Positions 47,662 to 49,076 of a DNA stretch of 64,000 nt are shown piece by piece (the stretch's first letter is position 1; every line of letters begins with the position of its first letter). Position numbers and translations under genes: made by a program. The stretch lies in IMG/VR virus record IMGVR_UViG_3300048904_000337, positions 1 to 64,000 of that record; one strand, 5' to 3'. The notes below the pieces were generated by a model. That model had not been told where the DNA came from. It was given only the letters and a program-made list of their open reading frames with translations, and ran no database searches. The stretch is from a virus.

Positions 47662-48198
47662 ATGCTTAACTTCAACAAGTGCATTTCCGACGTAGCTCAA
47701 TTCCACAAAAAGTTCGGTATCGATGTAAACCCGCTTGACGACAAGCGCCAATATGATCTTCGTGTCAAGCGCCAGCAAGAAGAATTCGATGAGCTGCACG
47801 ATGCCTACGAAAACAATGAAACAGTTTCCGAAGTTGCTGACGCTGTTATCGACATCGTTTACATTGCCGCCGGAACTGTCGATCTGCTGGGTGACCGCGA
47901 TGGTAATAGCCCAACTGATGACTTGTTTGTCCGCAAGTCACATCTCGAGCATTTGTTCGATCAACTGAATACTGCCTATGCAAGCCGCTTACCACTCCAA
48001 GCACTGTGGGATGAAGTTCACAATGCCAACATGCGCAAAGAGCGTGGAACTGAAGCAACTTCCAAGTATGGCAACAAGTTTGACATTGTTAAGCCAGCTG
48101 GTTGGGTTGGCCCTAACATTGCTGGCGTTCTTTCCTCCAATGGCATTGCGCCATTGACTGAAGCCAATACTTGGGCTGCAGAAGTGGGGTTGAACTAA
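47662..48198 (+). CDS. MazG-like all-alpha NTP pyrophosphohydrolase
   Basis: RVKRQQEEFDELHDAY...EVADAVIDIVYIAAG: the EExxE/D metal-binding helix pattern of the MazG/HisE family. Its stop overlaps the ATG of the ThyA-family gene (TAATG). Confidence 0.55.
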   Translation: MLNFNKCISDVAQFHKKFGIDVNPLDDKRQYDLRVKRQQEEFDELHDAYENNETVSEVADAVIDIVYIAAGTVDLLGDRDGNSPTDDLFVRKSHLEHLFDQLNTAYASRLPLQALWDEVHNANMRKERGTEATSKYGNKFDIVKPAGWVGPNIAGVLSSNGIAPLTEANTWAAEVGLN

Positions 48199-49076
48199 TG
48201 GTTGGTCTCACTAACATCTGCAGCAAGTTTGAGCAGCAGTACATGGACATTATGGCCAGCTTGGTAAAAGATGGAACACCTCGCGGTGATCGTACTGGCG
48301 TTGGCACTCAGGCCAAGTTTGCAGCTGAATTGCGCCATGACTGGAAAGACGGCTTTCCGCTCATTACCCACAGGACTCTGAACCCTACTGCGGCTATGGC
48401 AGAAATGTCCTGCTTTATCAAAGGGCTGACTGATATCAGCGAGTTTGTCAAGCGCGGTTGCAAGTGGTGGCTTGCAAATCTTGACAACTTCAACGAGCGT
48501 AATGGTACACCAGAAAATACTGATCTTGGTCCAATTTACGGTAGTCTTTGGCGCGACTTCCACGGTACTGACCAGTTGAAGTGGCTACTCGAAGAAGCCA
48601 AGAACAACCCGACTTCTCGCCGGTTGCTAGTTACAGCATGGGACCCAAGCCAGCAATCCAAAGCTGTTTTGCCTCCATGCCACTACAGCTTCCAGATCTT
48701 CATTGATGGGGATGAGCTGGATTTGCTGTTTAATATGCGTTCTGTTGATTGGGTACTTGGCTGCCCTAATGATATGATTGCCTATGGTTTTCTCCAGCTG
48801 GCAATCTGCCGTGAGCTCAATAAAGAACCGCGTGAGCTGATTCTTCATTCGGCTGATACGCATATCTACTCTAACCATATTGAAGGCGCTCAGCAGCTTC
48901 TTCAGACTTTTGTCCATCGGCGTCTTCCTTCCTGGGCTTGGGCAGATACGCCGTCCTACGAGAGTTGCATGGGCAAAATGGACGAGGATCTTGGCTTTTT
49001 TGAGCTGGAAGCCCAAGATCTTGGCATTGAACAGATCGAGCAAGGTCCGAGCGTAAAGTTCCAAATGGCAGTGTAA
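48198..49076 (+). CDS. thymidylate synthase-family enzyme with Asp at the Asn177-equivalent position (predicted dCMP-specific methylase/hydroxymethylase)
   Basis: ORF track gives 48171..49076. ATG 48198 is preferred. GDRTGVGT, LGPIYGSLWR, TSRRLLVTAW, LPPCH (Cys161), MRSVDWVLGCPND (Asp192, GAT 48771-48773) and DTHIYSNH. The spacing is identical to E. coli ThyA C146...N177. Confidence 0.7.
   Translation: MVGLTNICSKFEQQYMDIMASLVKDGTPRGDRTGVGTQAKFAAELRHDWKDGFPLITHRTLNPTAAMAEMSCFIKGLTDISEFVKRGCKWWLANLDNFNERNGTPENTDLGPIYGSLWRDFHGTDQLKWLLEEAKNNPTSRRLLVTAWDPSQQSKAVLPPCHYSFQIFIDGDELDLLFNMRSVDWVLGCPNDMIAYGFLQLAICRELNKEPRELILHSADTHIYSNHIEGAQQLLQTFVHRRLPSWAWADTPSYESCMGKMDEDLGFFELEAQDLGIEQIEQGPSVKFQMAV

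Follow-up and report, generated by a model that had tools for sequence, protein, structure and literature searches.

A thymidylate synthase-like enzyme with Asp at the Asn177 position and a predicted Xp12-type 5-methylcytosine pathway in an uncultured myovirus

Genes at the locus

The window analysed in this work is the whole stretch of 64,000 nucleotides at positions 1 to 64,000 of IMG/VR virus record IMGVR_UViG_3300048904_000337. PHROG and Pfam scans, which covered about 60 of its open reading frames (ORFs), indicated that it is essentially the complete genome, ~64 kb, of an uncultured myovirus. Positions 47,662 to 49,076 carry two overlapping genes, the first coding for a MazG/PRA-PH-like pyrophosphohydrolase and the second for a thymidylate synthase (TS)-like enzyme that has Asp where E. 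coli ThyA has Asn177. Together with deaminase and dihydrofolate reductase (DHFR) genes located elsewhere in the window, they are candidates for a pathway that replaces cytosine by 5-methylcytosine (5mC). The two genes and the diagnostic codons of the second are:

47662..48198, + strand: MazG/PRA-PH-type all-alpha nucleoside triphosphate (NTP) pyrophosphohydrolase, 178 aa (PF01503, 30.2 bits against a cut-off of 21.3)
48198..49076, + strand: ThyA-fold enzyme of 292 aa in which Asp occupies the Asn177 position, predicted deoxycytidine monophosphate (dCMP) C5-methyltransferase (5-methyl-dCMP synthase)
48669..48671, + strand: codon TTG of Leu158 (E. coli Leu143), from an alignment of 125 sequences
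48678..48680, + strand: codon TGC of the catalytic Cys161 (Cys146), read directly and from the alignments
48747..48749, + strand: codon GAT of Asp184 (Asp169), from the alignment of 125 sequences
48771..48773, + strand: codon GAT of Asp192 (Asn177, the pyrimidine-specificity residue), read directly and from the alignments

The stop codon of the first gene (TAA, 48196-98) and the start codon of the second (ATG, 48198-200) share one base, which is the TAATG overlap described in the original prediction, a reading of the nucleotide letters alone. An alternative TTG start for the TS-like ORF lies at 48171; the protein of a relative, P0001, starts with MVGLTNIC and matches the ATG start.

Active-site residues of the TS-like enzyme

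The product of 48198-49076 matched PF00303 (Thymidylat_synt) at 1.4e-59 over the full profile, 1-266. Its residues were assigned from three independent alignments: phmmer against T4 td (1TIS), MAFFT with 27 sequences, and MAFFT with 125 sequences including E. coli ThyA, T4 gp42 (the sequence used is identical to PDB 1B49), the Xp12 enzyme and one Rosemountvirus enzyme. The following window residues corresponded to E. coli ThyA residues in all three: R32 to R21, E69 to E58, W91 to W80, Y114 to Y94, R141/R142 to R126/R127, L158 to L143, C161 to C146, H162 to H147, R181/S182/D184 to R166/S167/D169 and H222/Y224 to H207/Y209. The TS catalytic landmarks and their ThyA spacing, as first described, are therefore all present, including the catalytic Cys161 and the Arg residues that bind phosphate (R32, R141/R142 and R181). 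Asp192 aligned with Asn177 in every alignment, so that the product lacks the Asn177 of a canonical ThyA. Because the stretch from Asp169 to Asn177 was ungapped throughout (DWVLGCPND in the window, DVFLGLPFN in E. coli), this assignment is unambiguous; the alignments could have moved Asp192 off the Asn177 position, and all three kept it there, while the codon read directly was GAT as predicted. Residues are numbered below as in E. coli.

The AlphaFold model of the enzyme, built with 36 sequences, had a predicted local distance difference test score (pLDDT) of 91.9. Its best PDB matches were E. coli TS structures, with a template modelling (TM) score of 0.93 and a root-mean-square deviation of 1.8-2.0 A over ~285 columns, and no dCMP hydroxymethylase occurred among the top 50 structural matches. 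The C-terminal tail of TS is also kept (...KFQMAV against ...KAPVAI in E. coli ThyA). Sequence identity was 33-40% to canonical TS, 29% to the Xp12 enzyme and 22% to T4 gp42.

Enzymological work cited in PMC8670742 and PMC13326640 showed that Asn177 reads uracil through O4/N3 hydrogen bonds and excludes dCMP, the N177D mutant of E. coli TS and the N229D mutant of L. casei TS become dCMP methylases and lose most activity on deoxyuridine monophosphate (dUMP), and Asp179 of T4 has the same role. This agrees with the switch of Asn-to-Asp mutants towards dCMP invoked at the outset. The enzyme might nevertheless be an ordinary TS, making thymidine monophosphate (dTMP) from dUMP beside a canonical dCMP deaminase and DHFR, and either tolerating Asp or accepting both substrates. 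Its score against the NCBIfam TS equivalog TIGR03284 was 166.5 bits, above the cut-off of 108.35, and every database annotation agrees with that name; the enzyme retains the remaining TS residues, with His147 and the C-terminal tail among them, and a dCMP deaminase, a TS and a DHFR also make up the classical dTMP module. The loss of dUMP activity and gain of dCMP methylation in the Asp mutants argue against this reading, as do the fixation of Asp across a deep clade and the restriction-resistant DNA of phage S144, a member of the wider group (PMC7432712; both described below). An ordinary TS is the least probable of the explanations considered here. On the same TIGR03284 scale the S144 enzyme also passed, with 191.7 bits, whereas the Xp12 enzyme, a dCMP methylase proven by experiment, stayed just below the cut-off at 99.6 bits.

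The likely product of the enzyme can be read from rules given in PMC13326640 (NAR 2026). There, N177D goes with dCMP, a bulky hydrophobic residue at position 143 with methyl transfer, Asp or Glu at 143 with hydroxymethyl transfer, and D169N with 5-hydroxy-dCMP; the rule at position 143 is a correlation only, since Xp12 itself has Asn143 and not a hydrophobic residue. The window enzyme has Asp177, Leu143 and Asp169, with no acidic residue at 143 and no Asn169, and this combination predicts 5-methyl-dCMP as the product. The D169N signature of the 5-hydroxy-dCMP synthases (RB69 gp48 / DLP3 gp80 type) is absent, the window residue being Asp184.

The original prediction had proposed a dCMP methylase or hydroxymethylase with a lean to methyl transfer, and that lean is sharpened by Leu143, Asp169, the TS C-terminal tail, the DHFR gene and the match to the Xp12 module. 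A hydroxymethylase like T4 gp42, which would give DNA with 5-hydroxymethylcytosine (5hmC) or a derivative, is improbable. In its favour, Asp occupies the Asn177 position just as Asp179 does in gp42, the MazG-like partner would parallel the T4 dCTPase, and several unannotated ORFs could hide a tailoring enzyme. The acidic residue that admits water to the methylene intermediate in T4-type hydroxymethylases (PMC13326640), Asp or Glu in these enzymes and in MilA, is however replaced by the retained Leu143. The ...MAV tail is missing from gp42, and the enzyme stands closer to true TS than to gp42 both in identity and in its structural matches. The linked deaminase, acting on 5-hydroxymethyl-deoxycytidine nucleotides, would give 5-hydroxymethyl-deoxyuridine and not thymidine, and the ORFs scanned in the window gave no match to a glycosyltransferase, a carbamoyltransferase or the TET family.

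Conservation of Asp177 and phylogeny

Among 5.8 billion proteins searched, relatives formed a tight family (P0001-P0019, 47-96% identity), mostly on metagenomic contigs of 63-66 kb, and the contig-sized relatives of the window came from several metagenomes. Asp177 was present in all 23 closest homologues (38-96% identity), together with Leu143, Asp169 and the ...MAV C-terminus, and His147 in 22 of them. Among the 120 best matches position 177 was Asp in 36 and Asn in 84. Comparison of these sequences indicates that Asp177 is conserved in the window family beyond chance and is a fixed feature of the lineage; its fixation across a deep clade points to selection for Asp.

The neighbour-joining tree showed that the window family clustered with further Asp177 sequences and with the enzyme of the Rosemountvirus yarpen, the one cultured member that the tree placed in this almost entirely Asp177 clade, while other Asp177 sequences were scattered among Asn177 clades and the Xp12 enzyme branched outside all TS-like sequences. 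The tree, which carries no support values, suggests that the switch from Asn to Asp happened more than once.

Co-occurrence was examined in an IMG/VR sample of 80 TS-homologue loci (L009-L088), which is biased to short marine contigs; nothing in IMG/VR was closer to the window protein than 43% identity. In this sample 45 of the 80 homologues carried Asp177 together with Leu143, His147 and Asp169. Many of the Asp177 loci were on marine contigs of ~57-68 kb, and for most of them the flanking sequence retrieved contained no deaminase. TS-like enzymes with Asp177 are abundant, and they do not always have a deaminase partner.

Asp177 together with Tyr147 was also found in the annotated 'thymidylate synthases' of two cultured phages, S144 (MT663719, L006:9597-10481) and yarpen (NC_048863, L001:9872-10756). 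S144 is a Loughboroughvirus. Of the enzymes tried on its DNA, SspI and PacI, whose sites hold A and T only, were the sole ones to cut; XhoI, EheI, Bsp120I, Cfr42I, SspDI, NotI and MauBI, seven enzymes whose sites contain C/G, did not. Its authors concluded that cytosine may be modified and did not find the gene responsible (PMC7432712). We infer that this resistance is linked to the Asp177 TS of S144, and the two seem never to have been connected before. For Rosemountvirus, PMC7503781 holds no DNA-modification data.

Partner genes and homology to the Xp12 module

The other genes of nucleotide metabolism in the window are:

41769..42203, + strand: short dCMP_cyt_deam_1-family deaminase, 144 aa (PF00383, 6.4e-16; phrog_174)
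24185..25075, - strand: DHFR, with a start possibly as far up as 25135 (PF00186, 8.9e-30; phrog_316, 8.5e-40)
54243..54578, + strand: second small NTP pyrophosphohydrolase-like gene, 111 aa (phrog_4856, 9.9e-17)

All three were in the original prediction, which likewise listed no second ThyA or ThyX. Window tblastn and motif scans aimed at C5 DNA methyltransferases, ThyX and a further ThyA gave only chance motif matches in tiny off-frame ORFs.

The product of 47662-48198 matched phrog_671 ('nucleotide pyrophosphohydrolase') at 1.8e-24 and had no significant sequence match to any solved structure. It carries the metal-binding acidic motif EExxE...DxxxD, of which E40, E41, E44, D60 and D64 were invariant in the orthologues. 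In the relative L004, in yarpen and in S144 the gene immediately precedes that of the TS-like enzyme, while in the relative L003 an ORF of 57 aa intervenes. Since its adjacency to an Asp177 TS gene is conserved, we infer a preference for deoxycytidine triphosphate (dCTP): the product is a predicted dCTP (possibly also dUTP) pyrophosphatase that would supply dCMP and remove dCTP. For the product of 54243-54578, Pfam and NCBIfam scans gave no match.

The deaminase has the zinc motif HAE...PCxxC with H70, E72, C95 and C98 invariant, and its best PDB match was the dCMP/dCTP deaminase of PBCV-1 (7FH4). Its gene is located ~6 kb upstream of the TS gene, as also in L003, L004, yarpen and S144. In L005, a siphovirus-like contig with a more distant Asp177 homologue, the deaminase gene is directly downstream of the TS gene and PolA follows two genes further. 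From its family and setting, the window deaminase is predicted to act on 5-methyl-deoxycytidine nucleotides and to yield thymidine nucleotides. The DHFR ORF codes for 296-316 aa; the DHFR domain occupies about residues 23-202 of the 316-aa form, and a C-terminal extension of ~100 aa matched nothing.

In Xanthomonas phage Xp12 all cytosine is replaced by 5mC. In the Xp12 genome (MT664984) a 'HAD hydrolase' (46207-46980), the TS homologue (45326-46195), a dCMP deaminase (44850-45326) and a DHFR (44377-44865) are contiguous. In blastp comparisons of window and Xp12 proteins the TS-like enzymes were 29% identical (2e-25), the deaminases 35% (35-36%; 4e-18) and the pyrophosphohydrolases 29% (4e-8). 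A profile built from the window pyrophosphohydrolase and its orthologues, with Xp12 left out, found Xp12 46207-46980 at an E-value of 1.9e-15, including the conserved C-terminal motif AANMxKxRG...VKPEGW. By these sequence comparisons, the Xp12 'hydrolase (HAD superfamily)' is a homologue of the MazG/PRA-PH-like pyrophosphohydrolases. For three of the four families of the Xp12 module a homologue is thus detectable in the window, and DHFR is shared only at the level of the Pfam family.

The association of these families is documented. MetaGPA (eLife 2021, PMC8670742) found that TS homologues on environmental phage contigs with modified cytosine are mostly Asp177, that Asp177 TS genes are strongly enriched there and co-occur with PRA-PH and dCMP-deaminase genes, and that positions 177 and 147, the latter ranking second, discriminate best between modified and unmodified contigs. 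In a later study (bioRxiv 10.1101/2024.12.05.627091), 70% of the deaminase genes on modified contigs were within 3 kb of a TS gene, and five of seven deaminase-linked Asp177 TS homologues, as well as the Xp12 enzyme, made 5-methyl-deoxycytidine (5mdC) in vivo. The linked deaminases are 5mC-selective (mSCD), a property that is polyphyletic and has no published sequence signature, and one of them, mSCD-B5, turns 5mdCTP into thymidine triphosphate (dTTP), so that a second thymidylate synthase is not needed (same source).

Proposed pathway

On the sequence comparisons and the analogy with Xp12, we judge it probable that the window phage carries an Xp12-type pathway replacing cytosine by 5mC. The MazG/PRA-PH-like enzyme (47662-48198) would hydrolyse dCTP to dCMP. 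The ThyA-fold enzyme (48198-49076) would bind dCMP, and not dUMP, through the Asp192 that replaces Asn177; as its residues and the homologous systems suggest, it would transfer the methylene group of methylene-tetrahydrofolate (THF being tetrahydrofolate) to C5 and reduce it by hydride transfer, giving 5-methyl-dCMP and dihydrofolate, from which DHFR (24185-25075) would regenerate THF. A phage or host kinase would phosphorylate 5-methyl-dCMP, and 5-methyl-dCTP would be incorporated by the phage family A polymerase, whose gene is preceded by that of a clamp-like protein:

50088..52082, + strand: family A DNA polymerase (PolA; phrog_17, 3.3e-101), 50% identical to the Rosemountvirus polymerase
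49129-50091: clamp-like protein, its gene adjoining the PolA gene

The deaminase (41769-42203) would turn part of the 5-methyl-deoxycytidine nucleotide pool into thymidine nucleotides, which would explain why no second thymidylate synthase is needed. A route from dCMP through 5-methyl-dCMP to dTMP had been considered conceivable from the start; it corresponds to documented biology of the Xp12-type module in its use of the deaminase, and differs in that the documented reaction operates at the triphosphate level. The 5-methyl-dCTP deaminase of XP-12 (Wang & Ehrlich 1982, as cited in PMC11946847) and 'a new thymidylate biosynthesis' belong to older XP-12 biochemistry to which both PMC11946847 and bioRxiv 10.1101/2024.12.05.627091 refer. 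The broader proposal of a dCMP-specific TS-family enzyme that works with a MazG-like pyrophosphohydrolase towards modified cytosine is supported by sequence, structure model, synteny and literature.

Methylation of dCMP might instead serve mainly as an alternative thymidylate route, with the packaged cytosine left unmodified or replaced only in part. Both the deaminase and DHFR recur as partners, such a bypass is documented for Xp12 in references given by bioRxiv 10.1101/2024.12.05.627091 and PMC11946847, dCTP may not be excluded, and the window yielded no kinase gene (see below); in addition, of the 17 TS genes that were linked to a deaminase and lay on contigs scored as unmodified, about half were likewise predicted to give no deoxythymidine (bioRxiv 10.1101/2024.12.05.627091). 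The same module, however, accompanies complete replacement of cytosine by 5mC in Xp12, the enrichment of Asp177 TS genes on modified contigs is strong (PMC8670742), S144 DNA resists all the C/G-site enzymes tested (PMC7432712), and the start/stop overlap of the pyrophosphohydrolase and methylase genes fits the removal of competing dCTP. A bypass with largely ordinary DNA is unlikely, if less so than the other alternatives.

Several observations weigh against the proposed pathway. No deoxynucleoside monophosphate (dNMP) kinase or thymidylate kinase was found in the window by the PHROG/Pfam scans of ~60 ORFs, by tblastn with the S144 kinase or by a Walker-A scan, which retrieved only Sak4, the tail sheath and a functionally uncharacterised 605-aa protein; a dNMP kinase is reported or annotated in XP-12, T4 and S144 alike. 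About a dozen ORFs of the window have no annotation. The enzyme is nearer to canonical TS than to that of Xp12, the one cultured-phage enzyme of proven activity, which moreover departs from the rule at position 143 as noted above. His147 is kept, while Xp12 has Pro147, T4 gp42 Thr, and yarpen and S144 Tyr. Two of the seven Asp177 homologues tested gave no 5mdC (bioRxiv 10.1101/2024.12.05.627091). In the biased IMG/VR sample, among genes with at least 5 kb on both flanks, a deaminase was near 2 of 18 Asp177 TS genes as against 1 of 21 Asn177 genes.

There is also a slight chance that 5-methyl-deoxycytidine is just an intermediate to a hypermodified cytosine made through an unannotated ORF, or that the enzyme is bifunctional on dUMP and dCMP. 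The bifunctional version is raised because this Asp177 enzyme is unusually TS-like in keeping His147, Leu143 and the C-terminal tail. A less far-reaching version, and a likelier one, is that the window lineage gained dCMP specificity independently of Xp12. ORFs that could be candidates for hypermodification are located at 25072-26614, 29279-31621 and 32677-34459, and a further one is the 605-aa Walker-A protein. The latter (27453-29270, - strand, Walker A GMIASGKT) matched only phrog_23037, of unknown function (3e-51).

Restriction-site avoidance was also examined. Palindromes containing G/C were not depleted in the window (median observed/expected 0.91-0.95), which is compatible with, and not diagnostic of, a protected genome.

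Other features of the window

The structural and lysis genes detected code for tail sheath, major head protein, protease, portal, large terminase, baseplate, tail fibres and endolysin. The replication genes code for primase, Sak4, single-stranded DNA-binding protein (SSB), Cas4-type exonuclease, helicase, the clamp-like protein, PolA and ligase. Megablast of positions 47000-52000 against phage records revealed no nucleotide-level relative among the deposited phages. Paralogues of PHROG 2420 ('tail fiber protein') are found near both window ends (1327-1788 and 62766-63263, both - strand); together with the 63-66 kb relatives, they suggest that the window probably represents a circularly permuted genome in almost complete form.

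The replication module contains, as insertions, a pair of paralogous endonuclease VII-like ORFs (39491-40054 and 44015-44560, both + strand; phrog_1035 / phrog_26577), which may be homing endonucleases; the relative L004 has instead a GIY-YIG ORF, located between its genes for the clamp and PolA. A gene for an RtcB-type RNA (tRNA-splicing) ligase lies at 21696-22934 (- strand; phrog_1075, 7e-149), and a single tRNA-Met (CAT) at 40880-40957 (+ strand) between the Sak4 and SSB genes. The two together may be a counter-measure to host defences that cleave tRNA. In the relative L003, a protein of the Acb2/Tad1-hairpin family (PF24729, the anti-CBASS/anti-Thoeris sponge family) is encoded at L003:1602-1892, adjoining a UvrD-type helicase gene.

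Significance

The pathway is already known. Publications cover the Asp177 rule, the partner genes and the 5-methyl-deoxycytidine deaminase route to thymidine, the association of Asp177 with PRA-PH and deaminase in 2021-2024 and the chemistry in 1978-1982. What is added is modest: an Asp177 lineage that is markedly TS-like and distinct from the Xp12 enzyme, and that is present also in cultured Rosemountvirus/Loughboroughvirus phages.

If the proposed pathway operates, a clade of uncultured phages packages DNA with 5mC at every cytosine. By extension, genomes substituted with 5mC would occur in the Rosemountvirus/Loughboroughvirus phages that are used against Salmonella and E. coli in biocontrol; fully 5mC-substituted genomes of these genera were not stated in the literature searched. 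Such DNA would block many restriction enzymes, attract modification-dependent nucleases and bias sequencing and cloning. The annotation of these enzymes is affected in any case. The Asp177 enzymes of the lineage pass the TIGR03284 cut-off and will therefore be called thymidylate synthase by annotation pipelines; they carry this label in all records examined, which would constitute a systematic error.

Comparison with known systems

T4 gp42 shares with the window enzyme the TS superfamily fold, the catalytic Cys and Asp at the specificity position, and its pairing with the dCTPase gp56 follows the same logic of a pyrophosphatase partner that would remove dCTP. The gp42 enzyme differs in its low identity (22%), in Asp145 at the Leu143 position, in Thr147 and in having no TS-like C-terminal tail; its product is hydroxymethyl, with THF released. 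T4 also encodes the gp1 kinase, glucosyltransferases and, as a gene of its own, td; the window yielded none of these.

The neighbourhoods described by MetaGPA and for the mSCD deaminases consist of PF00303 with Asp177, PF01503, PF00383/PF14437 and PF00476, and all of these are in the window. PBCV-1 7FH4, the best PDB relative of the window deaminase, is also the closest structural match reported for mSCD-B5. The window differs in keeping His147, although position 147 usually differs in modified contigs, and in the location of its deaminase gene ~6 kb from the TS gene, beyond the +/-3 kb neighbourhood used there.

The window phage is a distant relative of Rosemountvirus/Loughboroughvirus (Salmonella phages BP63, yarpen, S144 and ZCSE2), which are its closest cultured relatives by protein, with PolA ~50% and TS 35-36% identical. 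They share one gene order with the window, namely Sak4, SSB, deaminase, Cas4-type exonuclease, helicase, pyrophosphohydrolase, TS, clamp and PolA. Their TS enzymes have Asp177 (GLPHD), Leu143 and Asp169 as in the window, and Tyr147 unlike the window. Their genomes are 52-54 kb against ~64 kb and have no nucleotide-level similarity to the window, and S144 carries an annotated thymidylate kinase next to DHFR, of which tblastn detected no homologue in the window.

The Xp12 module consists of the same four gene families as the window, has Asp177 in its methylase (GLPYD in Xp12, GCPND in the window) and has the pyrophosphohydrolase gene directly upstream of the methylase gene in both phages. No second TS gene was found in the window, nor is one annotated in Xp12, whose genome is of similar size (63.8 kb). 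The Xp12 enzyme has Asn143, Pro147 and His205 and no TS C-terminal tail; at each of these points the window enzyme retains what TS has. Xp12 has its four genes side by side, whereas in the window the deaminase gene is 6 kb and the DHFR gene 23 kb away from the TS gene. Xp12 is a siphovirus of Mesyanzhinovviridae, and the window phage a myovirus whose replication module resembles that of Rosemountvirus.

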